A stretch of 64,000 nt of DNA from Parcubacteria group bacterium Gr01-1014_8 (GCA_007376385.1 VMGC01000005.1:119386-183385), one strand, 5' to 3'; shown: positions 3,818 through 62,306, counted from the stretch's first letter. Translations and numbers: made by a program. The notes: generated by a model from the letters alone, not told the origin.

Positions 3818-3830
3818 GTATGAATACCCT

Positions 3831-4196: not shown

Positions 4197-4416
4197 GGAC
4201 TAGTTGTTTCTTTTTGCGCCACCGGGAGGGTGAAATAAAATGTACTTCCGACCCCAACTTTGGTCACAACGCCGGTAATACCTCCGTGCCCCTATTATAC
4301 CCTTGGCGATGGCGAGCCCAAGGCCTGATCCTCGCATTCTCGGGATTGCCTTGTTATCGAAAACCAAAACGCCCAGCGATAGCGCGGGGCGTTCTCCACT
4401 CCTTTGTTAGAAGAAG

Positions 4417-19034: not shown

Positions 19035-19664
19035 ATGTGTTTTTCCGCTGCAGCAAGTTTTGTCGCGGGAGGAGCCTTGAGTGCAGTCGGAGTCATTACC
19101 GTTTCGCAAGCAAAGACAAAGAGGGAATTGCCGTTCGCAATGGTGCCGATTCTGTTCGGCGTTCAGCAACTGACAGAGGGATTTGTATGGTTTTCGCTCA
19201 GCTCCCACGCGGCGACCCTCAATCTGGTCGCAACATATATCTTTTCATTGTTTGCCTTTGTGGTGTGGCCGATCTATGTGCCATTCGTTGTAGGATTGTT
19301 GGAGACAGTGCAGTGGCGGAAGAAAGCACTCTATATTTTTCAGGCTGCGGGTCTCGCTGTTGGAGTGTACCTGCTCTACTCGCATACGCTAAGTTATGTC
19401 ACTTCGGAAATTGTAACTAGGCATGTTGTCTACAATAATTCGCATTTTTACGGGCTTACGGTAATGCTGCTGTATTTTGGAGCGACGATCGTTAGCTGCC
19501 TTTTTTCAAGCAAGAGAGTGATCAATACGTTCGGGATCCTGACTTTTCTGTTCGCGATGATCGCATATTTGTTTTACACAAATGCCTTTGTGTCGGTCTG
19601 GTGCTTCTTCGCGGCGATATTAAGTGTGCTTGTATACGTGCATTTCGCGCACCGGGCGGCATAG
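19035..19664 (+). CDS. hypothetical polytopic membrane protein
   Basis: About 210 aa with 6 hydrophobic helices. Confidence 0.45.
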   Translation: MCFSAAASFVAGGALSAVGVITVSQAKTKRELPFAMVPILFGVQQLTEGFVWFSLSSHAATLNLVATYIFSLFAFVVWPIYVPFVVGLLETVQWRKKALYIFQAAGLAVGVYLLYSHTLSYVTSEIVTRHVVYNNSHFYGLTVMLLYFGATIVSCLFSSKRVINTFGILTFLFAMIAYLFYTNAFVSVWCFFAAILSVLVYVHFAHRAA

Positions 19665-19738
19665 GGTGTCGGAATGGAGTGCTACGATTGAGGAGGTCGA
19701 TGCATATTAACAGCCTCATTCATGGCAAAACTAAAACT

Positions 19739-19939
19739 ATGACTCAAAATCTCGGACGTCTTGATAGGATACTGCGTTTCGCGCTCGCATTCTGGTGGCT
19801 TGGTCCATGGGCGCCATCGTACGGCATCCCCTTCGTTGACTGGGCAATTTTCCTTGTGGCGTGGATAGCGCTTATCGAGAGTTTCTCGGCGTGGTGTCTG
19901 TTGCATACGTGGTTTGGCATTGATAACAAGGATCAGTGA
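19739..19939 (+). CDS. DUF2892 (YgaP-like) small inner-membrane protein
   Basis: LGRLDRILRFALAF...GIPFVDWAIFLVAWIALIESFSAWC is typical of DUF2892. Confidence 0.6.
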   Translation: MTQNLGRLDRILRFALAFWWLGPWAPSYGIPFVDWAIFLVAWIALIESFSAWCLLHTWFGIDNKDQ

Positions 19940-19966
19940 GTTTTAACAGGTTAGAAAAAAGTTCCT

Positions 19967-20233
19967 GTGGAAAACACATCTCGTATTTCGGGAGTTGCTG
20001 CCGGGGCAGGGGTTGCAGCGGCACTTGTTGTTGCTTTCGTACTGTGTGCGATAGTGCAGGCCGTTGCACCGAGTATTCAGGCAACACATATGTGGGTAAG
20101 CCTTTTCACTTCGTCGCCGATCGGGTCCGCAGGTGCGTGGATAAGCGGTATCGCGAGCAGCGCTGTCGCGGGGTTTGTTTCTGGATGGATATTTGCGAGG
20201 GTTTATAATCTCATATCTTCACGCAAGGCGTGA
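19967..20233 (+). CDS. small Gly/Ala-rich membrane protein
   Basis: 88 aa with two TM segments. Confidence 0.35.
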   Translation: MENTSRISGVAAGAGVAAALVVAFVLCAIVQAVAPSIQATHMWVSLFTSSPIGSAGAWISGIASSAVAGFVSGWIFARVYNLISSRKA

Positions 20234-20772
20234 ACGGGGCAATGCGGGCGAATACACAGTGGTACGTTGTCACCGGAGGTCCCAGCTCCGGCAAAACGAC
20301 GACGGTAAATATATTGAAAGAGCGCGGATACAAGACGACCATTGAGCACGCGCGCCATTACATAGACACGAAGCGCGTCACAGGGAAGACCACGGATGAG
20401 ATACGCGCGAATCAGGTAGCATTTCAACAAGGCGTTCTCGATATGCAAATACGAGAGGAGAAGGCCCTCTCAAGGGACGAGGTAGTTTTTCTTGACCGGG
20501 CAGTTCCCGATGCGCTCGCATATTACCGTTTTCAATCTCTGCCAGAAGATGAGAAGCTGCAAAACGCTCTCCGGAGTGCGTCGTATAAAAAGGTATTCAT
20601 TCTGGATCCACTCCCGCTTGCTCCTGATTATGCCCGCACTGAAGATGAGACAGCGCAGAAACGATTACACGAGTTGCTCACCGAAGTATATGAGTCTCTC
20701 GGTTTTCCGGTTGTTCATGTTTCTGTTCTTCCACCGAAAGAGCGTGTGGATTTTATTTTGAAGAATCTATAG
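20230..20772 (+). CDS. P-loop NTPase (AAA_28-like small ATPase)
   Basis: Walker A motif VVTGGPSSGKTT and a Walker B-like motif VVFLDR. Confidence 0.6.
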   Translation: MNGAMRANTQWYVVTGGPSSGKTTTVNILKERGYKTTIEHARHYIDTKRVTGKTTDEIRANQVAFQQGVLDMQIREEKALSRDEVVFLDRAVPDALAYYRFQSLPEDEKLQNALRSASYKKVFILDPLPLAPDYARTEDETAQKRLHELLTEVYESLGFPVVHVSVLPPKERVDFILKNL

Positions 20773-20826
20773 CAAAAGTCCGTCCGCCAAATTGGCGAGC
20801 GGGCTTTGCAGTGAAGAGCTAAAATT

Positions 20827-20949
20827 CTATTTTTTCGATATCTGTTGCCACAACCAGATGCCAACGAGAACCAGGTCCACAAGCACTATGATCACAAAGA
20901 GAGAGCCAAAAATGCCTGCTCCGCCCATCATTCCGTATCCACCCATCAT
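20827..20949 (-). CDS. unannotated mini-protein (about 40 aa): MMGGYGMMGGAGIFGSLFVIIVLVDLVLVGIWLWQQISKK
   Basis: Hand translation of the minus strand. It is not in the ORF track because it is under 60 aa. A Met/Gly-rich N-terminus followed by a single TM segment. Confidence 0.3.
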   Translation of the reverse strand: MMGGYGMMGGAGIFGSLFVIIVLVDLVLVGIWLWQQISKK

Positions 20950-21142
20950 ATGAGAAATAGTTTTACTGCTAGTAAGGCGACCTCCGGCTAGTATACCCCA
21001 TGAGATGAATCATTCATCGTAAATTGGAGACATAATTTTAGGGTAAAAAGTCCCATTTGATGTCTGAAACTGTACGTTTTTCTATCTCACGGGGTATACC
21101 CTGGTATCTTGCGTTCATTTTGTCTAGGTATAGAGTGGGGAT

Positions 21143-21520
21143 GTGGACATGCGAGCATATACACCTTTGTTTCTCGCTATCGTCGTTATGGCGGCGGTTT
21201 TCGGGATGCCATTATTGCTCTCCGGCCCGATGCACCATGAAATGGGCTGTCCGTTTGATCAAGGAGAGGCAGCAATGTGCGCGATGAGCGTACTTGAACA
21301 CATGAAGTATTGGCAGCTCGCGTTTGCAAGCATCGTTCTTGAATTGCTTGCAGTTGCTGCGCTGACGTTTATTGCATATGGAAAGTGGAAAGGCATTGCA
21401 CCTCGAACGCCGGGCTTCGGGAGAATACTCGCACACAGTCATGTACCAGCGAGACCGACCTTGTTCCAGGAACTTTTTTCGCGAGGAATACTTAATCGTA
21501 AAGAATCCTACATTTTCTAG
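21143..21520 (+). CDS. membrane protein with a His/Met/Cys-rich loop (possible metal-binding)
   Basis: GPMHHEMGCPFDQGEAAMCAMSVLEHMKYW sits between two TM segments. Confidence 0.4.
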   Translation: MDMRAYTPLFLAIVVMAAVFGMPLLLSGPMHHEMGCPFDQGEAAMCAMSVLEHMKYWQLAFASIVLELLAVAALTFIAYGKWKGIAPRTPGFGRILAHSHVPARPTLFQELFSRGILNRKESYIF

Positions 21521-21550
21521 TTTTTGCTTTAGCAGTTAACTAGAAAATGT

Positions 21551-21724
21551 ATGGAACATACAAGCGCAATTTTTGTAACAGTACTTACGATCGGTCTCTT
21601 TGGGCTTATCATAGGTTTAGCTTCTGGCTACAACTTGGGTCTGCACAGGCTTGGCGCGCCGTCTATCGGCAACCACATCATGTCTAATGGTTACATCATG
21701 AAAGATGGTTCTATGGGCATGTAA
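21551..21724 (+). CDS. small hydrophobic ORF (57 aa)
   Basis: Hand-translated MEHTSAIFVTVLTIGLFGLIIGLASGYNLGLHRLGAPSIGNHIMSNGYIMKDGSMGM. Confidence 0.2.
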   Translation: MEHTSAIFVTVLTIGLFGLIIGLASGYNLGLHRLGAPSIGNHIMSNGYIMKDGSMGM

Positions 21725-21807
21725 AAGTGCGAGCCGCTTGCTTGGCATCCGCCAAGCAAGCGGCCTCCCGCACCTCTCAAACAATTAAACGGATAAATAG
21801 TACACTC

Positions 21808-22221
21808 ATGAAAACAATACTTATCGGCGGCATCGTCATATTGCTTCTCATCGGCGGGGCATGGTGGACGAAGAGCCTTCAAAAGAGCGATCCGGATGTC
21901 GTATCAAGAAACGGCCTACACTGGCATCCGACGCTTGCCATATATGTGAAGGGTGAAAAACAGGACATACCGAAGGGTATAGGACTTGGGGCAACGCATC
22001 TTCCGATGCACACGCACGATGACCTTCCTATTATTCACCTCGAATTCGGCAGCGTTGTCAGAAAGGAAGACTTGATGCTCGGACAATTCTTCAAGAATTG
22101 GGGAAAAGACATGCACTCGTTCGGAACAAATGTACACATGACGGTCAACGGGGAAACGAATACTGAGTTCGAGAACTACAGCATGCACGATAAAGACGTA
22201 ATAGAATTGCACTATGACTAA
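21808..22221 (+). CDS. signal-anchored His-rich protein co-transcribed with the multicopper oxidase (possible copper-handling accessory)
   Basis: His clusters (HWHP, HLPMHTHDD, HLEF, HMTV, HDKD). 8-nt overlap with the multicopper oxidase start. Confidence 0.45.
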   Translation: MKTILIGGIVILLLIGGAWWTKSLQKSDPDVVSRNGLHWHPTLAIYVKGEKQDIPKGIGLGATHLPMHTHDDLPIIHLEFGSVVRKEDLMLGQFFKNWGKDMHSFGTNVHMTVNGETNTEFENYSMHDKDVIELHYD

Positions 22222-23755
22222 GGCACAACTATTCAGTATTTTTCTCGCCATAGCGGTTCTAGGGATCGCTATGTATACGACTCAAGGGTATCTCTGGCCC
22301 GCGTCTCCTGTTGTGGCGAGTCAGGTGGTAGAGCTTGCGGACGGCGCCACATACGAGCTCACTGCGAGCGCAGTTGAAAAGGAAATAGGCGGTAGGACGT
22401 ATCGCATGCTCGCGTACAACGGTTCCATACCCGGTCCGCTCATTAAAGTTGCACAAGGTTCAGAAGTGACCATTAACTTTACGAACGATACCGGCATGAA
22501 GACGCTGCTCCATTCGCACGGAGTCCGCATGGACAACGCGTTCGACGGCTCGCAGACATCGCAAAAAGAAATGGAGCCTGGCGAGACATTCTCGTATACG
22601 CTTACGTTTCCCGATGCGGGCATGTACTGGTACCACCCGCATGTACGGGAGGATTATCAGCAGGAGCTTGGGCTCTATGGTAACTTCCTTGTCGTTTCAG
22701 TAGACGCGAACTATTGGTCGCCGGTAAACCGCGAAATACCGCTCTTCCTCGATGACCTTCTCATCGAAGGCGGGAATATCGAGTTAAGCACGCGCGGCGC
22801 AGATAGAACGCTCATGGGCCGATTCGGCAACGTCATGTTGATAAACGGCGACGACAATTACACGCTTTTAGCTAAGAAAGGGGAAGTCATCCGATTCTAC
22901 GTAACGAATTCAGCCAATGTACGACCGTTCAACTTTGCGATCGACGGCGCGCGGCTCAAGCTGGTTGGCGCGGACAACGGCGCGTACGAACACGATGCGT
23001 GGAAGGATTCGGTTCTTATCGGACCGTCGGAACGAGCGATAGTAGAAGTCTTGTTCGACAAAAGCGGTTCTTTCTCCCCGCAGAACCGAACGCCTAATAG
23101 AACGTACACATTGGGGCGCATAGATGTGTCAGCCGAAACCATTGGGGTCTCGTACGCTAATGAATTTGCAGAGTTGCGGACACACGAGGCGACGGTGCGA
23201 AGCATTGATGCGCTCCGTCCGTTATTCGCAAAGGTCCCGGACAAGCGCATTTCGCTTTCTATCGACATGATGGGGGGAATGATGGGTGGAGGCGGTCAGC
23301 ACAGGATGTCGGACGGCTCGATGATGGACAACGGCATGACGATGGGAATTCCTGAAGGTGGCATAGAGTGGGAGGACGATATGCAGATGATGAATGCGAT
23401 GTCGGATGCAGATTCAGCAAAATGGAAAATAGTCGACGAGGATACTCGAAAAGAGAATATGGATATTGATTGGTCGTTCAAGCACGGCGAGCCTGTGAAG
23501 ATCCGCATATTCAACGACCCGAGATCCATGCATCCCATGCAGCATCCGATACACTTTCACGGTCAGCGATTTCTCGTCGTGGCGCGTGACGGCGTCCCAC
23601 AGACAAATCTCGTATGGAAAGATACGGTACTCGTAAAAGCCGGTGAGACGGTTGATATTGTGCTCGACACATCAAATCCAGGGAAATGGATGGCCCACTG
23701 CCATATCGCGGAACACCTTGAAGCGGGGATGATGTTCACCTTCAAGGTCGAATAG
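22214..23755 (+). CDS. multicopper oxidase (CueO/laccase-like) with a Met-rich insert
   Basis: Cu-ligand motifs HSHG, WYHPH, HPIHFHG and HCHIAEHLEAGMM. The Met-rich segment MMGGMMGGGGQHRMSDGSMMDNGMTMG...MQMMNAM. Confidence 0.9.
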   Translation: MTKAQLFSIFLAIAVLGIAMYTTQGYLWPASPVVASQVVELADGATYELTASAVEKEIGGRTYRMLAYNGSIPGPLIKVAQGSEVTINFTNDTGMKTLLHSHGVRMDNAFDGSQTSQKEMEPGETFSYTLTFPDAGMYWYHPHVREDYQQELGLYGNFLVVSVDANYWSPVNREIPLFLDDLLIEGGNIELSTRGADRTLMGRFGNVMLINGDDNYTLLAKKGEVIRFYVTNSANVRPFNFAIDGARLKLVGADNGAYEHDAWKDSVLIGPSERAIVEVLFDKSGSFSPQNRTPNRTYTLGRIDVSAETIGVSYANEFAELRTHEATVRSIDALRPLFAKVPDKRISLSIDMMGGMMGGGGQHRMSDGSMMDNGMTMGIPEGGIEWEDDMQMMNAMSDADSAKWKIVDEDTRKENMDIDWSFKHGEPVKIRIFNDPRSMHPMQHPIHFHGQRFLVVARDGVPQTNLVWKDTVLVKAGETVDIVLDTSNPGKWMAHCHIAEHLEAGMMFTFKVE

Positions 23756-23805
23756 CCGGAGTGATGGTGTACTATTCAGAGACTAGCAGTAATGTATCAA
23801 GACAT

Positions 23806-23979
23806 ATGTCATGTAAAACATGCGGCGGCGCAACAGAAGGTTATAAGTGCGATGTCTGTGGCACCGAGGCGAAAGAGCACGATGACAAGCATTCGTGCGG
23901 AGGGCAGCACTGCATGCAGAAGTGCGCGATGTGCAATGAGGCGGAAACGAAATGCAGCTGCAGTTCAGTCGAGAGGTAA
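23806..23979 (+). CDS. small Cys-rich protein (12 Cys in 57 aa), putative metal-binding
   Basis: MSCKTCGGATEGYKCDVCGTEAKEHDDKHSCGGQHCMQKCAMCNEAETKCSCSS, immediately downstream of the multicopper oxidase. Confidence 0.45.
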   Translation: MSCKTCGGATEGYKCDVCGTEAKEHDDKHSCGGQHCMQKCAMCNEAETKCSCSSVER

Positions 23980-24033
23980 CATGCTGCCTAGGCGCGAGAC
24001 TGGCGCGGACAATGGGCGGGAGGGCAGATAGAG

Positions 24034-24062
24034 AAAAAAGGACGGCTCTGCCGTCCTTTTCT
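24034..24062. terminator. rho-independent terminator (bidirectional)
   Basis: AAAAAGGACGGCTCTGCCGTCCTTTTCTT sits between convergent genes. Confidence 0.65.
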
Positions 24063-24086
24063 TGCGGCTTTCGAGCTGCTCAAAGC

Positions 24087-24326
24087 TCAAATTTTAATGA
24101 GACTCAATTTCTTTTTTCGGGACCATTGTTTTATCTCAAACTCGCGCTTAAGTGCTGAACTTCTATTCCTCTTTTTTTCCGAATACAATACTCTTACAAC
24201 GCCTCTGCTTCGTGTGTAATTACCACCGAGTCCTTTCTGGTGTTCCTTGAAACGACGTCGTATATCCATCGTGATGCCCGTATATATAGAGCTATCTTTG
24301 CACTCTATGATGTATACCCAGTACAT
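24087..24326 (-). CDS. GIY-YIG nuclease family protein
   Basis: MYWVYIIECKDSSIYTGITMDIRRRFKEHQKG is the GIY-YIG signature. Confidence 0.75.
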   Translation of the reverse strand: MYWVYIIECKDSSIYTGITMDIRRRFKEHQKGLGGNYTRSRGVVRVLYSEKKRNRSSALKREFEIKQWSRKKKLSLIKI

Positions 24327-24569
24327 TATGTCCGTCGCTTCTTGCGTGTCTCAATTTTACTTTCTATAAGTTTCGTCCAACCTAAGATCTCTATCGCGCT
24401 TAATACAGCCTCCTTTTCTTCTTCATTCAAGATATTTTTGTGCAGCAACACAGTCAAAATATCTATTGCTTTCTTGTCTTCCATAGGTTTCTTCATAGTA
24501 TCGCATTACAGCGTGGAAGATCTGTCTCTCTGCCGGGCAGATCCAGAGCGATCGATGAGAGGAAAATCG

Positions 24570-24947
24570 CTAAAGAGCTGGAGGCGGCAAAGTCTGTTTT
24601 CGCAGTTTCCACCACCCGACGACAATCGGGAGGAAAAACGTGAGGGCGTAGTATAAATACACATCTAATTTGTAGTAGCCGTCCGCCGGTTGGAAGGCTT
24701 TGTACAGGAAGAAGTAATCGCAGACGATGGCGATCAGCACCCAGGCAGCGCCGACGAGTGCGTAGTATTGCACCGTACTCCCGTTAATTTTCTTCAAGAG
24801 CACCCACGTCGTGATGACAATCCCGATTGGTGTGATGATCCATCCAATTGCCGCAGAGGACACAAGCGTAAACAGGATGATGCCAAGCGCATACCCGATA
24901 AGCCAGAGCAGGAGTCCCCACCCGATTGTGTCTTTCAGAAGCTGCAT
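24570..24947 (-). CDS. hypothetical 4-TM membrane protein, paralog A (of 31679..32059)
   Basis: Shares GY-LGI-LF, IGWI-TPIG, YYAL, AW-LIAIV-DY-FL and FKPADGYYKLDVYLYYALT with the second copy. Confidence 0.5.
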   Translation of the reverse strand: MQLLKDTIGWGLLLWLIGYALGIILFTLVSSAAIGWIITPIGIVITTWVLLKKINGSTVQYYALVGAAWVLIAIVCDYFFLYKAFQPADGYYKLDVYLYYALTFFLPIVVGWWKLRKQTLPPPAL

Positions 24948-24973
24948 GTTCACGCGTTGATTATATCTCATTT

Positions 24974-25519
24974 TTAAAACAGCCTTATTTTCGCGTACGA
25001 AGATCCGTCTCCTATTCGTCCCTTGCCAATGTTTGTAAGACGTACCTGGCCTTGCGGATTAAATGCGCAAAATGTTGTCTTTCTCCCTTCCGGTCCGACA
25101 AGCATCCGGACGCGGCGTTCGTACAGCGGCAGCTTGTGAAGTTCCGCACGAAGGATGTCCATAGTATTCGTATCTCGTACTATCCATCCTACGTGCCAAG
25201 TATCGATATCGGGCTCCACTTCGAGTACCACATAATTTCTCCATCCGCCAATAAGCGGAATATGAAATAGGGGACCTGCACCGCTCTTTATTGATGATGC
25301 ATCATCACCCTCGATCACCACGCATTTTTTTAAGTCTATAGATGCTATTTCATCGTCATTGAATTTCTGAGCGTGCCATGCATGCGACTCTTGCGGCCGC
25401 TCGAATAGAGCCATCGACATAAGCCGCATGAATGGAGACATCGCGTAATCAATCAACTGCCACGACATGTGCAGGGACCTCGGCTTCATGGTTCTAGTGT
25501 AGCAAGTACCCAACTTCAA
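24974..25519 (-). CDS. hypothetical protein
   Basis: 181-aa ORF. No motif recognised. Confidence 0.4.
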   Translation of the reverse strand: MKLGTCYTRTMKPRSLHMSWQLIDYAMSPFMRLMSMALFERPQESHAWHAQKFNDDEIASIDLKKCVVIEGDDASSIKSGAGPLFHIPLIGGWRNYVVLEVEPDIDTWHVGWIVRDTNTMDILRAELHKLPLYERRVRMLVGPEGRKTTFCAFNPQGQVRLTNIGKGRIGDGSSYAKIRLF

Positions 25520-25532
25520 ATCATTCCCCCTG

Positions 25533-26231
25533 CTATGAAATCGCTGGTGGTGGCCACGTATGCGAGATCATCACAAGCGCCACATAAAACGTTAGGTGGA
25601 TCATGTAGTTGTATACGAAACCGCTCGGAACACGCAGGATCAAGTAGGGAAATATGAATGCGGAAGCAACGGCGCCGAGTGTCATGACCATCGTATATGG
25701 CGTGGGCGCGCCGCCGATTGCAAAGAGCAGAATGTGCACGCCGCCGAAACATACTGCGTATACAATGGATGTTTTTTTAACCGAACGAAATGTTGTAGCG
25801 AGTGCCAAGATGAGTGCAGCTATCAATACTTGCTGGATCAAAATATCAAGCGCTTTCGGGAGAAAGTACCACGGTGTTGCGAATATAATATCGGTATATT
25901 GCGCGATGCGAGGTACCTGCGGAATCGGAAGCTGTGAAAGGACGAAGAGCATAAAGAAAATGAATGCGCCATACGCTCCACAGAGTAGTCCATATACCCA
26001 GACACGATTTTCGGTCGGGAGCCATTTGGAGAAAATATCCCAAAAAACATACACGCTGATCAAAAGCCACACCACATAGTAGAGCGTGATCGCAACCGGG
26101 GTATTGTTGTAACTGAGATCAACTCCGAGAATGGGGAGGAACGTGTAGAAGCCGATGTTTACGGCGGCCCATAACGCCGCTATCTTACCAAGCGTTTTGT
26201 AGAGGGGGACGCGTAAATGTTCGATGGCCAT
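25533..26231 (-). CDS. hypothetical polytopic membrane protein
   Basis: 232 aa with about 7 TM segments. Confidence 0.5.
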   Translation of the reverse strand: MAIEHLRVPLYKTLGKIAALWAAVNIGFYTFLPILGVDLSYNNTPVAITLYYVVWLLISVYVFWDIFSKWLPTENRVWVYGLLCGAYGAFIFFMLFVLSQLPIPQVPRIAQYTDIIFATPWYFLPKALDILIQQVLIAALILALATTFRSVKKTSIVYAVCFGGVHILLFAIGGAPTPYTMVMTLGAVASAFIFPYLILRVPSGFVYNYMIHLTFYVALVMISHTWPPPAIS

Positions 26232-26388
26232 GATTGTGCGAGTGCGCGTAATTGTACACGAATATGGCTACGAAGGTCGTAGCCACGCTGAATTGTATGT
26301 CGTTATTTTTTGATGAGCCCTAAGCACATCACCGAATATATGCGGTCGGATTTTCAAATGACCAGTTTCCTCCCTGGCATATGCCATC

Positions 26389-26619
26389 TTGGTGCTCTAC
26401 CTTGAGTTCGGTGCCGCACATGTGCTTTTACTGCTGGCGGTGTCTCCGACTCAATATGCCGCAATCATGACAATCGGCGCGCTGGTCTCAACACTCATAT
26501 TTCCGTACTTGATGTTGCGTATACGCGGAGGTTTTGTTATTTCGTATACCATCCATCTTGTCTTTTACATCATTTTGGCGACACTGTTGCACACGTGGCC
26601 GCCGGATCACACGGGATAA
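26389..26619 (+). pseudogene. inverted C-terminal fragment homologous to 25533..26231 (gene remnant; TTG start in the ORF track)
   Basis: Hand-aligned: HVLLLLAVSPTQYAAIMTIGALVSTLIFPYLMLRIRGGFVISYTIHLVFYIILATLLHTWPP against VHILLFAIGGAPTPYTMVMTLGAVASAFIFPYLILRVPSGFVYNYMIHLTFYVALVMISHTWPP. Confidence 0.4.
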
Positions 26620-26673
26620 AAACTTTCAGACGAACAGTCCCGAAATCTGCGCAGGACGTGGTGATGACCCCGC

Positions 26674-27090
26674 TTACTTTGTCTCTAGTCGGATGCTTGT
26701 TCCTGCTTTATTGGTGCGGTAAATATATGTTTCTCCTTTCGCGAGCATTTCGACGGTAAATCCTGGTACTAATGCCTGAAGGCAGCTCTCCGCTGGTCCA
26801 CCAAGTCCGAGACAGCCGTCGGTCCACGTGGTCTCCGTTATCTGCATAATTACTATGCTTTTCTCCTCAACAGAAAGCTTTGAGGCAAGGTCTTTGCGAG
26901 CTACGGCTGCCGCGGGCTCTACGGGGAGGTCGTGAACTATGCTGCCTTGTTGAGGATTCTCGCCAGAGGTAACAGTCATCTGGTTCGTGACAGATGATTC
27001 TGTCGTTGGTTGATCCGCAAAAATCAAATACGCACCTGCTCCAAGAATTAGGACGCCAATAATTGCGAACAATGTTGTGTTGGTGTTCAT
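26674..27090 (-). CDS. signal-anchored hypothetical protein
   Basis: 138 aa with an N-terminal TM segment. Confidence 0.4.
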   Translation of the reverse strand: MNTNTTLFAIIGVLILGAGAYLIFADQPTTESSVTNQMTVTSGENPQQGSIVHDLPVEPAAAVARKDLASKLSVEEKSIVIMQITETTWTDGCLGLGGPAESCLQALVPGFTVEMLAKGETYIYRTNKAGTSIRLETK

Positions 27091-27223
27091 ATGAATAGTA
27101 TAGACGATGATTCCAAAATAATCTTACGCACTAGCGTGATGCGATAATCGTACTCCGAACATCACAAAAAGACTGACTGTGTGGGTTGGCGTTGTCGCGC
27201 TCATACTGCTGGATCGTCACTTT

Positions 27224-27309
27224 ATCTTGCGAGGATAGCGAGAGAAATGCGAGTGCTTGCACTCGCATTTCCGAGCGACGCAGCAAGCAAAGGTTTGAAA
27301 CCTTTCATA
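27224..27309. repeat. structured repeat element of about 80 nt, copy 1
   Basis: TCTTGCGAGGATAGCGAG-hairpin-TTCCGAGCGACGCAGCAAGCAAAGGTTTGAAACCTTTCATA. The second copy is at 27856. Confidence 0.55.
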
Positions 27310-27841
27310 GTTCCACCAAAACGCTCGTTTTTATGCTGCCGTCTTTTGAAGACTCGTCATAGCGCTCGATGCGGAATCCACCTTTCTGGATAAATGCGGC
27401 GAATCTGGTTCCAGTGAGTGCATCGTTGCAGTCCACTTTGCCGAGCATTATCTTGTGATCCTCGATCTCATTCATTTCTTTGCCGGTGCAGCCCATCGCG
27501 GTACCAAGATCGTAGCGCTTCGTTGTGCCGTCCAAAGTGGACACGTCGGCCGCAATCGTCTGTTCGTTGATGCGGTAATCGTCCTCACTCTTGATCTGGG
27601 GATTCGCCTTCTCGATGCTCCAGGTTACTTTCATGACTGTCGTTGCGTCAAGATTCCACAGTGGGAGGAGTGAACCGCCGGTGAGGAAGAAGCCGAGGTC
27701 TCCGACTATGCGGATTGGAGGCGGTGCATCCTCCGCCGGTTGGACAGCGTTGTAATGGATGACCGAGCCAATGTAGCGGACGCCAAGAAAGAGCCCGACG
27801 ATAATAATAACGATTGAAAACATTGTTAGATATCGATTCAT
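27305..27841 (-). CDS. signal-anchored hypothetical protein
   Basis: About 178 aa from MNRYLTMFSIVIIIVGLFL. Flanked by the two 80-nt repeat copies. Confidence 0.45.
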   Translation of the reverse strand: MNRYLTMFSIVIIIVGLFLGVRYIGSVIHYNAVQPAEDAPPPIRIVGDLGFFLTGGSLLPLWNLDATTVMKVTWSIEKANPQIKSEDDYRINEQTIAADVSTLDGTTKRYDLGTAMGCTGKEMNEIEDHKIMLGKVDCNDALTGTRFAAFIQKGGFRIERYDESSKDGSIKTSVLVEL

Positions 27842-27855
27842 ATACTTATTTTTTG

Positions 27856-27932
27856 TCTTGCGAGGATAGCGAGTGAAGCGAAAGCACGCTTTCGCTTTCG
27901 AGCGTCGCAGCAAGTAAAGGTTTACCTTTCAT
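27856..27932. repeat. structured repeat element of about 80 nt, copy 2
   Basis: TCTTGCGAGGATAGCGAG-hairpin-TTTCGAGCGTCGCAGCAAGTAAAGGTTTACCTTTCATA. The internal hairpin has a different sequence from copy 1 but is still self-complementary. Confidence 0.55.
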
Positions 27933-28122
27933 ATTCTAATAATTCTCCCGGCTGACAATCCAGCGCTTTGCAGATCGCCTCGAGGGTTGAAAACCGGATT
28001 GCCCGTGCTTTTCCGTTTTTTAATATAGAAATATTGGCCATCGTGATGCCTACCTTTTCCGTAAGCTCGGTAACGCTCATCTTCCGCTTGGCGAGCATGA
28101 CATCTAAATTGACGATTATCAT
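27922..28122 (-). CDS. XRE-family helix-turn-helix transcriptional regulator
   Basis: LAKRKMSVTELTEKVGITMANISILKNGK is a classic Cro/C1-type HTH. Confidence 0.85.
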   Translation of the reverse strand: MIIVNLDVMLAKRKMSVTELTEKVGITMANISILKNGKARAIRFSTLEAICKALDCQPGELLEYER

Positions 28123-28580
28123 ACCGTTAGGTCGTTCTCTGATTTAATGTCGATAGCATTCTGCAGGAGCTTCTCCAGGACCGCCGCAAAAACGCCGGTG
28201 ATGAGCGGAGCCATGATAAAGACGAGTCCGATGGGTACGGCACCCGGCGCGTCGTCTTTGTCTGCGATATAGATGATGACTGGCATGCCGGCTGCATACA
28301 ATGTGCTGATAGCAAACGCACAATATTTAATAGTCTTGATGGCCTTCACTGATTCCTCCGAGAAAGCGGTGTTCTTGTCTATGTAGCGAAGCAAGAGCAA
28401 GCCCTGATAGAGCGCATAGAAGAAGGGAATAGCCGCTGCACCCATAATGAGCAACAGGGGGAGATACATTCCCGCATTTCCCGAGAGACTCACCCCGGCG
28501 ATGATGATGCATAGTCCGAGCACCGCGAGTCCTAGACAGTAGATAACTACTTTCAGAAATAGAGTCGAGCCCTTTTTCAT
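28119..28580 (-). CDS. DUF2975-like membrane protein (partner of the XRE regulator)
   Basis: 4 TM segments. The gene pair with the downstream small XRE HTH and the 4-nt overlap fit the usual DUF2975-XRE arrangement. Confidence 0.65.
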   Translation of the reverse strand: MKKGSTLFLKVVIYCLGLAVLGLCIIIAGVSLSGNAGMYLPLLLIMGAAAIPFFYALYQGLLLLRYIDKNTAFSEESVKAIKTIKYCAFAISTLYAAGMPVIIYIADKDDAPGAVPIGLVFIMAPLITGVFAAVLEKLLQNAIDIKSENDLTV

Positions 28581-28707
28581 ACAATCAAGTCTATCCTGTC
28601 ATTTATCGTTTGTCAATATATTGTTATCGTTTATATGCTGTTGCCAGGATCTTTAGCAGACGTATAGTTTCGAAGGTGGAAGTAGTCTTGTTTTTGAAAA
28701 AGTCGAA

Positions 28708-29319
28708 TTGGTAGCTCTGTTGCCCATAATTGACGCTCTTAAGTTAAATTTGATGCTTGAATTTCTTAGTAATTACTCCGGCGCTCTAACTGGAGTCGCT
28801 GCGCTGATAGGTGCCTGCGTTGCTATCTACGGTATCAGTGAGTGGAAGCGCCAATTTAAATGGCGGATTGAATATGAAACCGCTCGGCGATATATCAGGG
28901 CTCTTTATGACGTGCGTGAAGCGATAAATCGGGACGTCAGAAACCCAACTATTTCTCATGCAGAAATGAAAGCTGCCGAGGAGGCAGCACAGTTTAAAGG
29001 CCTAGATGTTACTAGAGCAGATACACAATGGATTATTTACAATCGCCGATGGGAAAAAGTCTCAGTTGCAAGAACGAATTTGAGGGAAGCGCTGCTCGAA
29101 ACGGAGGTACTCTGGGGAAACGAAATAAAAAATGCGCAATCTGCTTTAGACGCACTGATTGGGATTTTATATGGAAAAATATGGGCAATTTTTCACAATG
29201 TTCCGACGCCGGATGCTGACATATATTTGTATCATACGGACGGCAAAGATAGTTTTACTGCAGAAATAGACAATGTTATTGAGGGCGTCGCAAAACCACT
29301 CCGCTCCCACTTACGCTAG
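28708..29319 (+). CDS. hypothetical protein with an N-terminal TM segment
   Basis: 203-aa ORF. No motif recognised. Confidence 0.4.
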   Translation: MVALLPIIDALKLNLMLEFLSNYSGALTGVAALIGACVAIYGISEWKRQFKWRIEYETARRYIRALYDVREAINRDVRNPTISHAEMKAAEEAAQFKGLDVTRADTQWIIYNRRWEKVSVARTNLREALLETEVLWGNEIKNAQSALDALIGILYGKIWAIFHNVPTPDADIYLYHTDGKDSFTAEIDNVIEGVAKPLRSHLR

Positions 29320-29350
29320 CTTCACGATTGTTTAAGACTTTTGAAAATGC

Positions 29351-29420
29351 TAGGTTCTTGCGGTGATGTTGACCATCCATTCGATACCAAATTTTTCGGT
29401 GAGCATGCCGAACGTGTCAC
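29351..29420 (-). pseudogene. 3'-terminal remnant of a PhnB-like VOC gene (…GDTFGMLTEKFGIEWMVNITART*)
   Basis: Hand translation of the minus strand. Matches the C-terminus of the intact gene at 32210..32638 (…FGMFRDKYGIEWMVEF…). Confidence 0.45.
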
Positions 29421-29548
29421 CCCGCGGTAGTTGAGGATGGGAGCCTGACTTCACCAATCCCGTCACCGACGCACAATCGGCTCAAGCGCTAAAAGTACCT
29501 TTTCAAAAAGGCAAATCGGTATCCAAAATATAGATTTGTAATTTAGAC

Positions 29549-30334
29549 TTATTTTCGAGTCGCATACAGAACCGCTACTGTACCGAATACTAAAAATGGC
29601 CATAACAGCCACGTTGCAAGAGGAATCCCAAGAAAAAGCGAATCTAAGATTGTGCTAGTCTGCCATGTATAGGCCCACTGCTTTGCCGCGATGTTTGGAA
29701 GTTCTTGGATAAGCATGAAAACGTATGTCGCAGAGAGCGCCGCCACAAGTGTCGCGCGCCAATTCTGTAAAAAGTCTCGGACAAACGAACTGTGGGAACG
29801 TCGTTCTGAGATGATAGAAAGCATTGCGCAGACAACAAGCAGAAACGAATATGAACCGAGCACAATAGAAAATCTTGAATGAAGGTTAGCAAAGAAATAC
29901 AGCGTAAGAATTGTTGAGGCGATGCAAATGACTTTTGCGATGCGTACAGGATTTTGGCGCACTTCGGTCGCAGGAGTTTCCTTTGCGCCGAAAACTTTTC
30001 TCCCATACAAATATGACAGCACTATTATGAATCCGCCTGCAGGGTATGCCCATGCAAACAAAAGAATATATTCAACAAGCGAATCGTAATTATAGTGCCA
30101 TGCGTGCGCGAGACGCAGACCACTAAATTCAACCGCGAGCCCGCCCATAAGAAATACAACGTACAGAAGAATAATTTTCCCACGCGAGCGCAATTCTGCG
30201 GAGATCGTTGGAATGAGTAAAAGGAGAAGCCCCAACAGAAGAAATTCAAAGAAATGATTGTAATGAAAGGAATACGCAAGGCTGAGAGAGAGGAGTGTAA
30301 TGAACCCCCCTGCCGCGACAAGAACCTTGGTCAT
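29549..30334 (-). CDS. hypothetical polytopic membrane protein
   Basis: About 260 aa from MTKVLVAAGGF with about 8 TM segments. The ORF track extends to 30493 through the gene-remnant repeat. Confidence 0.45.
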   Translation of the reverse strand: MTKVLVAAGGFITLLSLSLAYSFHYNHFFEFLLLGLLLLLIPTISAELRSRGKIILLYVVFLMGGLAVEFSGLRLAHAWHYNYDSLVEYILLFAWAYPAGGFIIVLSYLYGRKVFGAKETPATEVRQNPVRIAKVICIASTILTLYFFANLHSRFSIVLGSYSFLLVVCAMLSIISERRSHSSFVRDFLQNWRATLVAALSATYVFMLIQELPNIAAKQWAYTWQTSTILDSLFLGIPLATWLLWPFLVFGTVAVLYATRK

Positions 30335-30404
30335 GAAGAAAAGTATATCACCCCTACCGCCACACGAACGGCTGGCGTTTTCCTGCGCGACGAGCTCTAA
30401 ATTA

Positions 30405-30470
30405 CGACTTTTTTGCGGTGATGTTGACCATCCGTTTCGTTCCGAATTTGTCGGTGAGCATGCCGAACGT
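30405..30470 (-). pseudogene. second 3'-terminal remnant of a PhnB-like VOC gene (…GDTFGMLTDKFGTKRMVNITAKKS*)
   Basis: About 85 percent nucleotide identity to the 29351 copy over about 70 bp. Confidence 0.45.
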
Positions 30471-30547
30471 GTCACCCGCCGCGACTTATCCAAAGGGACG
30501 ACAGGTGCGATGCCTGACGAGAGCTTGTGCTATAGTGTGGCCATCAT

Positions 30548-30763
30548 ATGTTGACAACGATATACAAGAAAGTTCGCTCCGGGTACGTTGCATGGGTTGA
30601 GGAAATCCCGGGTGTTAATACACAGGGGGCCACTAAAGCGGAGGCCAAGGCTAATCTTGCAGATGCGCTACGGGAGTTTGTGGCCGCTCGCCGAATGCTC
30701 ACGAAGCGGGAATCTGCTCGTGGCGAGTCGCTTGTGCGCGAAAGCATCCCTGCCTTCCGCTAA
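30548..30763 (+). CDS. hicB: HicB-family antitoxin
   Basis: YVAWVEEIPGVNTQGATKAEAKANLADALREF is the typical HicB/UPF0150 fold sequence. Confidence 0.75.
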   Translation: MLTTIYKKVRSGYVAWVEEIPGVNTQGATKAEAKANLADALREFVAARRMLTKRESARGESLVRESIPAFR

Positions 30764-30957
30764 TGAAGCGAACAGAACTTGAACGGTATTTGCGTGCGCA
30801 TTCGTGTTACCTGCTCCGAGAGGGCAGCAAACATTCGGTATTTCACAATACGAAGAATGGCTAGACCTCAACAGTTCCAAGGCATACTGAAATCTTTCCA
30901 ACACTTGCGCGGAAAATCTGCAACGACCTTGGAATTCCACCCATCAGGAAGAAATAG
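30763..30957 (+). pseudogene. hicA: HicA-family toxin gene inactivated by an in-frame TAG at codon 34
   Basis: MKRTELERYLRAHSCYLLREGSKHSVFHNTKNG-TAG-TSTVPRHTEIFPTLARKICNDLGIPP. The start overlaps the hicB stop (TAATG). Confidence 0.6.
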
Positions 30958-30970
30958 AAAAGTGTTCTTT

Positions 30971-31216
30971 TTACCGATGAATACAGCCGGCCCAGCAGCA
31001 GGGGCGGCGCATGCCGCTTTTCATCTTTGAAAGCGCCTTCTCGATACGGATATTTCTCGTTTCCGCTTTCTTACCGGAGATTACCCAGCAAATCCATTCA
31101 TTGCGCGCGAGCGGCGTAATATCCTCCCACAATGCCCGTACCTTAGGCGTCTGGCTTATGGCATTTCGTAAATCCTCAGGTAGTTTATGTACCGTACCGT
31201 TGGCGAGCTTGGTCAT
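30971..31216 (-). CDS. YdeI/OmpD-associated family protein
   Basis: KLPEDLRNAISQTPKVRALWEDITPLARNEWICWVISGKKAETRNIRIEKALSKM matches the family pattern. Confidence 0.6.
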   Translation of the reverse strand: MTKLANGTVHKLPEDLRNAISQTPKVRALWEDITPLARNEWICWVISGKKAETRNIRIEKALSKMKSGMRRPCCWAGCIHR

Positions 31217-31261
31217 GGGATCATTCTATCAAATCTCTTACGCTGGGCTCGCAAAGTATAG

Positions 31262-31591
31262 TTATCTTTTGTCGTGCATGGTCACGGCTCTTGGCAAATG
31301 TGGTTTTATTTTTTCGTATTCTCTGTGGCGAGAAATAAGGTCGAAGAACGATTTGCCTGCGTTAGCCAAAATTACGTCATTGTTATAGGGCAACCCGGAG
31401 CCCGACAATTGATGCGTAATTCTTCCCCATACGCCCTGTACCCAGAGTTTTATTTCTTCGGGATTATTGAAATGCTTGACCGCGAGATTGCTATTCTCAA
31501 TGTAATACTTATCGATCCAGTCTATCACGACACTCTCGATCACGTCTCGTGTCGTTGCGTTGAGCTGACGAAATCCTTTGTCTTCTTTCAT
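31262..31591 (-). CDS. hypothetical protein
   Basis: 109-aa ORF. Confidence 0.4.
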   Translation of the reverse strand: MKEDKGFRQLNATTRDVIESVVIDWIDKYYIENSNLAVKHFNNPEEIKLWVQGVWGRITHQLSGSGLPYNNDVILANAGKSFFDLISRHREYEKIKPHLPRAVTMHDKR

Positions 31592-31678
31592 ATAGAAATA
31601 GGAAAAAGGCGAGGAAAAAGAAAAAGATGTCCGACACTTTTTTCTCTTTTTCCAACGACCGCATTCATAGTGTTTTAT

Positions 31679-32059
31679 TTATGTGCCCGAATCGATCATA
31701 TTTTGAGTTCTGTTCTTATACCAACCGACTGCGAGGGGGAGAATGAGCGTCAAAGCGTAGTAGAGATATACATCTAACTTGTAGTATCCATCTGCCGGCT
31801 TGAATATCATCACGAGAAATATGTAGTCGAGAACTATCGCAATAAGTGTCCATGCGACCGCGAGGAGAGCATAGTGTTCAAATGATGCGCTTATTTTCTT
31901 GAACAGCACCCAAAGCGTGATCAGTACACCGATCGGCGTAAGGATCCACCCGATCATGGAGGGCGATACTACAAAGAAGAGTACGATGCCAAGCACATAG
32001 CCGATGAACCAAAGCGCAAAACCCCACAAAATCGCATTTTTGTAGAACGCCTTATTCAC
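31679..32059 (-). CDS. hypothetical 4-TM membrane protein, paralog B (of 24570..24947)
   Basis: See paralog A. Confidence 0.5.
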   Translation of the reverse strand: MNKAFYKNAILWGFALWFIGYVLGIVLFFVVSPSMIGWILTPIGVLITLWVLFKKISASFEHYALLAVAWTLIAIVLDYIFLVMIFKPADGYYKLDVYLYYALTLILPLAVGWYKNRTQNMIDSGT

Positions 32060-32209
32060 GCTCTGATTGTATCAGAAGTTCGAACGTCAACTGCCATCCA
32101 AAAAAGAATGGTTTTGTTAAGAGACAAAATCACGTGCTCCTCTGTGTCTCCAATCTTCGAACCTTCTTTACTGCCAATAGAGTGTTTGTACCTCTATAAG
32201 CCTATTAAG

Positions 32210-32638
32210 TTATTTAGCGGCTGGAAACTCAACCATCCACTCGATACCATATTTGTCTCGAAACATGCCGAAATAGGAACCCCAAGGGCTATTAGCCATA
32301 GGCATCTCTACAGTGCCACCTGCCGAAAGCCCGTTGAATATTAGTTCTGCTTCTTCCTTACTCTCTGTACTGACCAAAATTTTACTTCGATTTTCGTTTT
32401 CATTCACTTTACCCATAAACGCAGGTACGTCATTGGCCATCAACACGTTACTTTTACCGATGGGTAAAGTGATGAGCATAATTTTCTCTGCCTCGGTGTC
32501 TGACACTGGAAATTCTGGACTCGCTAGATCTTTGAAACGAGTAATCTTTGTAAAATCACCCCCAAATATTGATTTATAAAATGTAAACGCTTCTTCAGCA
32601 TTGCCGTTGAAGTTAATCCAAGGATTTATCGTTGTCAC
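32210..32638 (-). CDS. VOC family protein, PhnB-like
   Basis: 142 aa. Carries FYKSIFGG, …VLMANDV… and the C-terminal …DKYGIEWMVEF. Confidence 0.7.
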   Translation of the reverse strand: MTTINPWINFNGNAEEAFTFYKSIFGGDFTKITRFKDLASPEFPVSDTEAEKIMLITLPIGKSNVLMANDVPAFMGKVNENENRSKILVSTESKEEAELIFNGLSAGGTVEMPMANSPWGSYFGMFRDKYGIEWMVEFPAAK

Positions 32639-32672
32639 ATGATGAGTATATCAGAAGGGTCGAACTAATTTG

Positions 32673-32744
32673 CTCCCCGGGTAGGACTCGAACCTACAAC
32701 CAACTCCTTAACAGGGAGCTGCGCTACCATTGCGCTACCGGGGA
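32673..32744 (-). tRNA. tRNA-Asn (anticodon GTT)
   Basis: Hand-folded cloverleaf: acceptor TCCCCGG/CCGGGGA, D-stem GCGC, anticodon loop CTGTTAA, T-loop TTCGAGT. Confidence 0.85.
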
Positions 32745-33165: not shown

Positions 33166-33439
33166 TCAGTCTGCAGCGTTAGGCAAGAATTCCGATGGGG
33201 AAATGGGCGCCGGCCATCACGAGAATCGTGATGAAGCTCCAGAGCGACACTTTTTTCTTGCCGGTACTCCGGCTTAGAAAAATGGAAGTACTCTTGTGGT
33301 GCTTCGACATCATAAATGTTTTTGTTTGCGATCGTTAAATTAAGGTAGCAGACCAAGGTCTAACTTTCACAGAGGGTGAAAAACTCCTGGAGTACAGCCC
33401 TAACGCAGGCATGGTACCACATAAGCAGTAACTAGTCAA

Positions 33440-36467: not shown

Positions 36468-36480
36468 TCCGTATACCGTA

Positions 36481-36514
36481 TACCTTAATGGTGCCGGTCG
36501 GCACCCTTAAGGTA
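36481..36514. repeat. palindromic hairpin repeat copy 2 (TACCTTAATGGTGCCGGTCGGCACCCTTAAGGTA)
   Basis: Same core as copy 1, with one stem mismatch. Confidence 0.6.
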
Positions 36515-38340: not shown

Positions 38341-38428
38341 CCGCGGGGTATTCGACCCTATGTTGGTTCCTCGGCTCGGAAATGAACATGAGTACACGTT
38401 CATTTCACTCGCAACGCTCGCCAATAAA
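38341..38428 (+). repeat. element of about 88 nt, copy 2
   Basis: CCGCGGGGTATTCGACCCTATGTTGGTTCCTCGGCTCGGAAATGAACATGAGTACACGTTCATTTCACTCGCAACGCTCGCCAATAAA. Confidence 0.55.
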
Positions 38429-38868: not shown

Positions 38869-38879
38869 CCTCGATGCCT

Positions 38880-38919
38880 AAATACCTTAGTAGTGCCGGT
38901 CGGCACTACTAAGGTATTT
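38880..38919. repeat. palindromic hairpin repeat copy 3 (AAATACCTTAGTAGTGCCGGTCGGCACTACTAAGGTATTT)
   Basis: Perfect 18-bp stem with the same CCGGTCGG core. Confidence 0.6.
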
Positions 38920-39152
38920 AGTGATGCGGGGAGGGGGATGCACGAAAGTAGCCGGGAGCAAAGAGCAGGGAGGAAAAGCGCTCTTCACGTCACCGGCTAC
39001 CAGCCTGCGCAGCCTTCTTAGGGCGCGCAGTAACGTTGCTCGAACCTGGAGCTCAAGCAACGCGTTATCCATAGGCACAATACGTTTGTGTCCAAAGCGA
39101 GTCAACCATTTGCGGGAATGCCTTTCAAAGATACAATGCCACTCCAACCTCT

Positions 39153-50881: not shown

Positions 50882-50962
50882 CGCGCCGAGTATACCTTAA
50901 GAGAAATTAACTGTCCTGTCGGTTACGCACAGTTTTTCGTCTCAATTGTTTAGTTCATTGTA

Positions 50963-50998
50963 ATACCTTAGTGGTGCCGGTCGGCACCACTAAGGTAT
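50963..50998. repeat. palindromic hairpin repeat copy 4 (ATACCTTAGTGGTGCCGGTCGGCACCACTAAGGTAT)
   Basis: Perfect 16-bp stem with the same core. Confidence 0.6.
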
Positions 50999-54285: not shown

Positions 54286-54301
54286 GCTCTAACTTTTCGA
54301 C

Positions 54302-54339
54302 CATACCTTACTTGTGCCGGTCGGCACACCTAAGGTATG
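54302..54339. repeat. palindromic hairpin repeat copy 5 (CATACCTTACTTGTGCCGGTCGGCACACCTAAGGTATG)
   Basis: Same core, with one stem mismatch. Confidence 0.6.
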
Positions 54340-54410
54340 CTCATGTTGAGGGGTGAGGTGTTGAAGGGCTCGAATTGCTCTATTGTGTGGATAGCGATAG
54401 TATGCACGGG

Positions 54411-62300: not shown

Positions 62301-62306
62301 ATCTAC

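Follow-up and report, generated by a model that had tools for sequence, protein, structure and literature searches.

Two unequal 3' remnants of a PhnB-type VOC gene around a membrane-protein gene in a variable locus of a groundwater Parcubacteria genome

How a gene for a membrane protein comes to lie between two copies of the 3' end of a VOC gene, a PhnB-like gene of detoxification type, is the question raised by a locus of the groundwater Parcubacteria group bacterium Gr01-1014_8. The locus was studied within a stretch of 64,000 nucleotides of this genome (GCA_007376385.1 VMGC01000005.1:119386-183385), which is called the window in the following. The gene in between encodes a polytopic membrane protein of 261 amino acids with eight transmembrane segments (8-TM gene, 29549..30334, minus strand) and is co-oriented with the two VOC pieces, called rem1 on its downstream and rem2 on its upstream side. 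A first-pass annotation of the window had seen the arrangement as fitting a partial tandem duplication or repeated insertion into a VOC gene. The analysis presented here indicates with high confidence that rem1 and rem2 are non-functional scars of gene turnover. As to how they arose, the tentative preference, held with somewhat less than even confidence, is that they are the dead 3' ends of a second VOC gene which has been lost, called VOC-2 here, and that they were generated by displacement of its tail and a later deletion of its 5' part. The locus is not a new kind of element, but adds to the known cases in which fragments of pseudogenes or displaced gene tails are found at a variable site.

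The repeat pair is real and lies far beyond chance. A repeat search of the window aligned positions 29344-29422 (direct-repeat copy 1, the part of rem1 that can be aligned with rem2) to positions 30399-30477 (direct-repeat copy 2) as direct repeats of 79 nt with 84% identity, 1055 nt apart, and self-BLAST of the window yielded 29355-29422 versus 30410-30477 with 88% identity and an E value of 1.5e-17. The repeats of about 85% identity which had been annotated at 29351-29420 and 30405-30470 are thereby confirmed, and so are their direct orientation and their position on both sides of the 8-TM gene. The copies differ at 12 of the 79 positions, and outside of these 79 nt the flanks share nothing in window alignment and self-BLAST. 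The longest exact block common to both copies has 27 nt (GGGTGACACGTTCGGCATGCTCACCGA) and is found at the 5' edge of the repeat. A run of 27 nt without a difference at the beginning of 68 nt has a probability of about 0.013 according to a post-hoc calculation of our own on a motif which is highly conserved, and the identical block may reflect ancestry or constraint; the sharp 5' edge of the repeat is partly the start of the invariant motif of the VOC family. A third, weaker copy of the repeat (32204-32282, 62%) is the 3' end of an intact VOC gene.

An assembly artefact, i.e., a chimeric join or a mis-resolved repeat, was what the first-pass annotation had named as the finding that would overturn its view. 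It is suggested by the origin of the window from a metagenome contig (ENA ERZ27284378 k139_616945, 189.8 kb) and by a break of a second assembly (Logan, SRR8863434) at 31082-31110. The contigs of this second assembler are, however, 100% identical to window positions 19549-31110 and 31082-32701; the first of them (L002) spans hicB, rem2, the 8-TM gene and rem1, and the break is located 0.6 kb away in the OmdA gene. As the shared exact run of at most 27 nt is below the k of at least 31 used by both assemblers and the copies differ at 12 of 79 positions, a collapse or mis-join is impossible for k-mer assemblers. An artefact is therefore very unlikely, to a degree that it need hardly be reckoned with. 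At the break inside the OmdA gene the two Logan contigs have 29 nt in common, and a variant strain or a change in coverage is suggested at this point.

Both pieces are indeed tails of a VOC gene. On the minus strand the translation of rem1 ends with LPRGDTFGMLTEKFGIEWMVNITART and that of rem2 with GDTFGMLTDKFGTKRMVNITAKKS, each followed by a stop, and the intact paralog at 32210..32638 (VOC-1) ends with SPWGSYFGMFRDKYGIEWMVEFPAAK before its stop. A custom protein profile was built from 102 full-length genes of the VOC subfamily characterised by ...PWGDTFGMLTDKFGxxWMVNI.... It matched rem1 at positions 112-136 of 138 (E 8.8e-12), rem2 at positions 115-137 (E 1.6e-10), VOC-1 over its full length (E 7e-35), and nothing else in the window. 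The first-pass assignment of both repeats to the C-terminus of a PhnB-type VOC protein was therefore correct. The remnant peptides of 42-43 amino acids were not scored by the Pfam VOC models (PF06983 3-dmu-9_3-mt and PF00903 Glyoxalase), as is expected for such short pieces, and the significant match to the PhnB/YjdN-type VOC family was obtained with the custom protein and DNA profiles.

The two remnants are not of equal length, although they had been annotated as two 70-bp pieces. With a codon-aware DNA profile (nhmmer) only 29426->29358 could be aligned for rem1 (E 2.9e-19), whereas rem2 was aligned over 128 nt (30529->30402, E 6e-19) with a deletion of one nucleotide within the Trp-114 codon. 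In the shifted frame rem2 reads HKLSSGIAPVVPLDKS, in exact register with ekLseggkvtmPLeKa of the family. This upstream extension (HKLSSGIAPVVPLDK) fits profile positions 97-111 with p of about 0.004-0.012 in an anchored frameshift-tolerant alignment judged against shuffles and random windows, and the same procedure gave a score of 0 for an upstream extension of rem1. The VOC gene of another Parcubacteria metagenome-assembled genome (L009) is identical to rem2 in 18 of 21 nt at TGGGACAAGCTCTCGGCAGGC, and comparison with it revealed that the leading Trp codon of rem2 is mutated from TGG to TAG at 30532-30530. Rem1 (29350..29427, minus strand) thus consists of about 78 nt with codons ~113-138 and a TAG stop, and rem2 (30402..30532, minus strand) of about 131 nt with codons ~96-139 and a TAA stop. 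In addition, a tryptophan is replaced by arginine in the WMVNI motif of rem2, and Trp-114 by arginine in rem1. Rem2, which is disabled by its nonsense codon, its frameshift and the change to arginine, is therefore a piece of a pseudogene. A complete VOC domain of about 140 amino acids in an open frame is contained in neither rem1 nor rem2; they are fragments, not genes.

Three further candidate similarities around the remnants were rejected. Between the stop of the 8-TM gene and rem1, the reading 'RYF*RLS...GEVRLP', which resembles 'GYFEKLS...G.V.MP' of the VOC genes, reached 10.3 bits in a banded local frameshift-tolerant alignment (p about 0.03-0.05), had an anchored score of 0, was missed by nhmmer and is regarded as unproven. 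A banded alignment of the stretch upstream of rem2 that extended onto the antisense strand of hicB (profile positions 69-94, p about 0.01) was dismissed as chance because hicB is conserved there in the relative L132 described below. The peptide 'SGSHPQLPRGD' upstream of rem1 could not be upheld as a decayed OmdA N-terminus, as it had no Pfam match.

The subfamily to which the remnants belong is widespread. A search with a degenerate DNA pattern for DTFGMLT[DE]KFG found it in at least 119 genomes of many phyla, including Saccharibacteria, Gottesman-, Levy-, Peri- and Parcubacteria, Actinobacteria and Chloroflexi, and nearly all of these genomes have a single VOC gene of about 140 amino acids with this ending. 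Two copies of the motif were found in none of 119 subfamily loci; extra matches turned out to be complete paralogs from other subfamilies or single genes with a frameshift. Neighbouring VOC paralogs occur at 10 of the 119 loci and also in L137 and L009, and in the 119 genomes they always belong to another subfamily. The gene is often lost by decay. Damaged copies were seen in L048 (341-784, minus strand), L082 (about 4180-4290, plus strand), L049, L034, L091 and L098; among them are a change of TGG to TGA at the same Trp-114 codon in a Saccharimonadales metagenome-assembled genome, a tail remnant of 38 amino acids after an unrelated gene, and several frameshifted copies.

Both remnants lie in a replaceable slot, which extends from hicB to the pair of DUF2975 and HTH (helix-turn-helix) genes. 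Read in the direction of the VOC genes, the locus comprises, in this order, tRNA-Asn, VOC-1, a gene for a protein with four transmembrane segments (4-TM), a reading frame of 109 amino acids, OmdA, hicA'/hicB (opposite strand), rem2, the 8-TM gene, rem1, a reading frame of 203 amino acids (opposite strand), DUF2975 and HTH. The nearest syntenic relative is a JGI contig of 61 kb (L132) with 88% nucleotide identity in VOC-1. It has two blocks in common with the window, OmdA-hicA-hicB (window 30545-31198, 68.5%) and DUF2975-HTH (window 27927-28631, 70%). BLAST and alignment placed the breakpoints 3-5 nt upstream of the hicB ATG (about 30543) and in the DUF2975 promoter region (about 28640). The slot delimited by them (28640..30543) measures about 1.9 kb in the window and contains the 203-amino acid gene, rem1, the 8-TM gene and rem2, while that of L132 measures about 0.47 kb and contains a DUF817 membrane-protein gene reduced to an N-terminal fragment (E 2e-8). 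Since the contents differ completely and the slot of L132 holds a fragment as well, the slot turns over genes and collects fragments in both lineages. The DUF817 fragment (L132 17436-17678, minus strand) covers profile positions 1-61 of 237 and represents a second, independent gene remnant at the same spot.

The truncation of rem2 coincides with the slot boundary beside the start codon of hicB. The hicB antitoxin gene (30548..30763, plus strand) can be matched to L132 up to a point 3-5 nt upstream of its ATG, which is where rem2 sets in on the opposite strand; everything upstream of the ATG, i.e., the region of promoter and ribosome-binding site, has been replaced by rem2 antisense, and hicB itself is intact. 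The adjoining hicA toxin gene (30763..30957, plus strand) is a pseudogene, just as the first-pass annotation had claimed. It carries one nonsense codon (30862-30864), matches HicA_toxin with an E value of 8e-8 after repair of this stop, and is intact in L132, which has a Gln codon at the position of the stop.

The reading which needs the fewest assumptions to connect these observations is tail displacement. The slot would once have contained a whole VOC-2 gene, convergent with the 203-amino acid gene. Incoming DNA consisting of a related VOC tail and the 8-TM gene may then have recombined into VOC-2, with a homologous crossover inside VOC-2 at its left end and an illegitimate join at about codon 112 at its right end. 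By this the resident tail would have been pushed downstream to become rem1, and the incoming tail would have become the end of the gene, now rem2. A later deletion or replacement would have cost VOC-2 its 5' two-thirds as far as the hicB ATG, and rem2 would afterwards have gained its stop codon, its frameshift and the change from tryptophan to arginine, with hicA presumably decaying too. In favour of tail displacement, rem2 is continuous with more upstream VOC sequence while rem1 starts abruptly at about codon 113, is co-oriented and downstream, and has a non-homologous 5' junction, as would be predicted for a displaced piece. Both pieces are members of the subfamily, their disabling mutations are visible, they lie in a replaceable slot, and no recombinase is present. 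The absence of a second motif copy from all 119 subfamily genomes argues against a start from two tandem genes of the same subfamily.

Several points weigh against tail displacement. The first-pass annotation had proposed to look for the ancestral uninterrupted arrangement in related genomes, and no relative turned up whose slot contains an intact VOC-2. All three steps are therefore inferred and not observed. Neither the arrangement of the donor (VOC-2 followed by 8-TM) nor that of the recipient (VOC-2 alone) was found in related genomes, among which there is one close 8-TM homolog on a contig of 932 nt (L005) and L132 with its different slot. In L005 the 8-TM homolog is followed by an OmdA-like start, and the 72 nt upstream of it are without a profile-detectable VOC tail, which leaves a donor with VOC and then 8-TM unproven. 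Two events are required. Finally, only 63-79 nt can be compared, which gives the argument from equidistance set out below a wide error. The first 30 nt of L005 (VLEFHKSRM followed by a stop) were considered as a VOC tail in front of the 8-TM homolog; they were detected by neither protein nor DNA profiles and are no more than an unsupported hint. Beyond annotation the case matters little. It would mean that a second PhnB-type VOC gene was once present in this lineage and has been lost. With closer relatives sequenced, the locus could provide a clean natural case of tail displacement by illegitimate recombination in bacteria of the candidate phyla radiation (CPR).

The identity of about 85% between the tails had been taken as a sign of duplication, and this is not borne out. 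Over the 63 nt from Gly-115 to Ala-135, rem1 and rem2 agree in 56 positions, rem1 and the functional gene of L009 likewise in 56, and rem2 and this gene in 54, so that the three are roughly equidistant with 7, 7 and 9 differences. Among unrelated members of the subfamily the median is 46 identical positions over the same span, with 56 at the 99th percentile. Since the tail motif is so conserved that unrelated genomes reach equal identity, 85-89% identity is no proof of recent duplication. The equidistance would fit the tails of two different alleles better than a recent copy made in place, as far as so few nucleotides can tell. The practical lesson is that short repeats which encode a very conserved protein motif can be 85-90% identical at the DNA level without having been copied recently, and identity should not by itself be taken for duplication.

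These figures bear directly on the idea of a partial tandem duplication in place, which would have comprised VOC-2 from about codon 112 through the 8-TM gene (1055 nt), followed by deletion of the second 8-TM copy and later loss of the VOC-2 5' part. The repeats are direct, their period of 1055 nt corresponds to one tail plus one gene, their first 27 nt are identical, and other old duplications exist in the neighbourhood. Degenerate codons for the same amino acid are identical between the tails in 13 of 15 cases, which is in the top 0.7% of family pairs. The tails are, on the other hand, no closer to each other than to the L009 gene or to a Rhodococcus gene, which reaches 0.85-0.86 with both tails in the degenerate-codon comparison. 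The flanks outside the 79 nt share nothing, and neither two whole units nor a junction repeating the flank was found. Neither self-BLAST nor a paralog search revealed remains of another 8-TM gene in the window, and with a single copy the duplication needs an extra precise deletion. A duplication of this kind is therefore considered unlikely. Both explanations in the first-pass annotation, a partial tandem duplication and repeated insertion, are still candidates; with one 8-TM copy, a simple tandem duplication would require the extra deletion.

A start from two tandem VOC genes of the same subfamily, each 5'-truncated independently, one by arrival of the 8-TM gene and the other by the rearrangement at hicB, would make the repeat merely the most conserved motif of both. 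The identity expected for unrelated family genes is compatible with this, as its 99th percentile of 56/63 equals the value for rem1 and rem2; VOC paralogs do cluster (L137, L009 and 10 of the 119 loci), and the 5' ends of rem1 and rem2 differ. In the 119 genomes the neighbouring paralog was, however, always of another subfamily and no locus had two copies of DTFGMLT[DE]KFG, and two separate truncations must both have spared only the tail. Such an origin is accordingly viewed as rather doubtful.

A precedent for tail displacement exists. For the displacement of Rhs C-termini a scheme of homology-facilitated illegitimate recombination has reportedly been invoked. In both Rhs and the Vibrio type VI secretion system (T6SS) an incoming segment anchors by homology in the resident gene and joins illegitimately downstream, and the former 3' piece ends up further downstream with its orientation unchanged, without integrase and with unequal remnants, as would be the case here. 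In these systems a variable 3' toxin tip with its immunity gene is exchanged under selection, and arrays recur in many strains, whereas the locus described here has the conserved tail of a small enzyme-like gene, a single event, a dead parent gene and no evident toxin/immunity logic. For the orphan arrays of the Vibrio T6SS with their displaced 3' pieces, homology-facilitated illegitimate recombination was invoked too (PMC5361080). Ordinary pseudogene fragments in variable regions of reduced CPR/Patescibacteria genomes are another comparison. They share with rem1 and rem2 the truncation, the frameshift and nonsense mutations and a slot content which varies between relatives; at this locus hicA is decayed too, and a DUF817 fragment occupies the slot of the relative. 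Nothing essential differs, the sole oddity being two fragments of the same end which bracket a live gene.

The layout of repeat, gene and repeat, with 27 identical nt at the repeat's 5' edge and a unit of 1055 nt, i.e., of cassette size, also raises the idea that the 79-nt VOC tail is the recombination site of a mobile cassette composed of the 8-TM gene and the site, moved by a site-specific recombinase or by a Campbell-type circle crossover. Evidence to the contrary predominates. There is no integrase nearby, the repeat folds no better than shuffled sequence on both strands (z -0.9 to +0.4), none of the 119 loci has a second tail, other members of the 8-TM family are in unrelated contexts without VOC tails, and rem2 runs on into upstream VOC sequence like a gene remnant does. 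A cassette is thus a very improbable explanation, and it is just as improbable that the conserved VOC tail serves as a landing pad for integrase-free exchange of gene cassettes in Patescibacteria. If this were true, small membrane-protein genes would move together with a tail copy of about 80 nt, and their entry by a homologous or Campbell-type crossover would give rise to tail arrays downstream of VOC genes. The co-oriented VOC-1, rem2 and rem1, which all lie within 3.3 kb, would then represent an array of this kind.

Two well-known systems invite comparison with such a cassette. In the icd gene of Escherichia coli, insertion of e14 and of phage 21 duplicates the 3' end of the target gene at the prophage insertion site. 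As there, the inserted DNA is bracketed by direct repeats which consist of the 3' end of a gene, and they may likewise have diverged outside an identical core. The icd/e14 type needs an integrase and leaves its target gene intact. Here, no integrase was found and the insert, a single gene of 0.8 kb, holds only the 8-TM gene; the target is truncated, with about 55 nt of VOC sequence upstream of rem2 before the hicB ATG; and the site is unused in 119 other genomes, which have one motif copy per locus. Integron cassettes, composed of a reading frame and attC, are similar in size and layout, with one promoter-proximal reading frame bracketed by repeats of about 80 nt. Unlike them, the locus has no IntI or other integrase and no attC-like imperfect palindrome or folding signal, as seen from the folding z scores on both strands, and its repeat is VOC coding sequence.

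A present function of the repeats as promoter, terminator, small RNA or small peptide would be in line with the location of rem2 in the intergenic region of 8-TM and hicB and of rem1 in the 3' flank of the 8-TM gene, and with the nearly perfect family consensus of rem1. A scan for promoters and terminators gave no excess over shuffled sequence, there was no excess folding energy and no Rfam match, neither piece contains a reading frame of at least 40 amino acids, and relatives do without the pieces. Retention for such a function is hardly credible.

The bracketed protein has no Pfam or NCBIfam match and belongs to a small, uncharacterised family with 55 cluster representatives among 1.84 billion proteins. 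Its AlphaFold2 model has a pLDDT of 93.7 and found no fold match in the PDB. The homolog in L005 is the sole close one (70% amino acid identity), and a search for related loci with an alignment of seven sequences led to one JGI locus. Members of the family are found in unrelated contexts (next to tRNA and L19, leuB/leuD, or OmdA), and no VOC tail was detected near them. An association of the wider family with VOC genes was therefore rejected, the contexts being different, as was a distant relation to DUF817, the family of the slot fragment in L132 (hhalign probability 2.5%). The fourth occupant of the slot is the 203-amino acid reading frame (28708..29319, plus strand; 188 amino acids as called in public records), which is convergent with rem1. 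Its homologs have no VOC remnants nearby on their contigs, which are very short.

VOC-1 (32210..32638, minus strand) is an intact, conserved paralog of 142 amino acids, whose tail is 62-67% identical to the remnants. It matches PF06983 and PF00903 and, weakly, the NCBIfam model YjdN, and has hundreds of orthologs in Patescibacteria with 80-90% amino acid identity. Directly upstream of it lies tRNA-Asn(GTT) (32672..32744, minus strand). The same adjacency is found in L139 (9840-9912 and 10001-10429), and the two therefore are a backbone pair and not the border of an island. In the genomes inspected for VOC-1 (L139, L132, L135, L137 and L140) tRNA-Asn precedes VOC-1 in L139 only besides the window, and the downstream neighbours of VOC-1 differ in every genome: pyruvate kinase, TspO, HupE, GlnA or an open reading frame of 402 amino acids. 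No piece of tRNA-Asn of at least 12 nt was found elsewhere in the window and no integrase, transposase or recombinase family was recorded for the genes called between 19.5 and 42.6 kb, so that both the direct repeat of the tRNA 3' end at a far border and the integrase of a tRNA-targeted island are missing. The first-pass description of 24-33 kb as a recombinationally active region ending at tRNA-Asn thus holds for the remnants, which lie in a replaceable slot, and fails for an island targeted to tRNA-Asn. Beyond tRNA-Asn, a direct repeat of 48 nt (33253-33300 versus 62141-62187, 87.5%) links the region with a tRNA cluster near 62 kb.

The two other duplications which had been annotated in the neighbourhood could be reproduced, and both are older than the pair of VOC tails. 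The 4-TM paralogs at 24570-24971 and 31679-32059 (both minus strand) are 62% identical in amino acids and about 65% in nucleotides (E 3e-47); an extension of their similarity into the 3' end of the upstream gene, suggested by tblastn, was not upheld by DNA alignment. The inverted fragment at 26389-26619 (plus strand) is a diverged copy of the C-terminal 80 amino acids of a membrane protein of 232 amino acids (25533-26231, minus strand), with 47% amino acid identity and an E value of 5e-20.

Two further kinds of repeats were observed in the window. A hairpin repeat family occurs at 38341-38428 (plus strand), 3731-3818 (minus strand) and 62221-62301 (plus strand), with a second subtype at 27221-27309 and 27846-27933 and in L132 at 19674-19755. 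The structure is GAAATG-stem...stem-CATTTC followed by a conserved tail resembling CGAGCGACGC-AGCAAGTAAAG, and 7 of 12 pairs of the stem stay paired through changes on both sides. The L132 copy of the second subtype is 82-87% identical, which is above the neighbouring coding DNA (about 70%). No Rfam model matched the family, whose members could be small RNAs, leaders or elements resembling a terminator. Self-BLAST finally revealed palindromes of about 36-44 nt, each self-complementary and 87-95% alike, at 3067-3106, 36480-36514, 38878-38921, 50962-50998 and 54299-54342.

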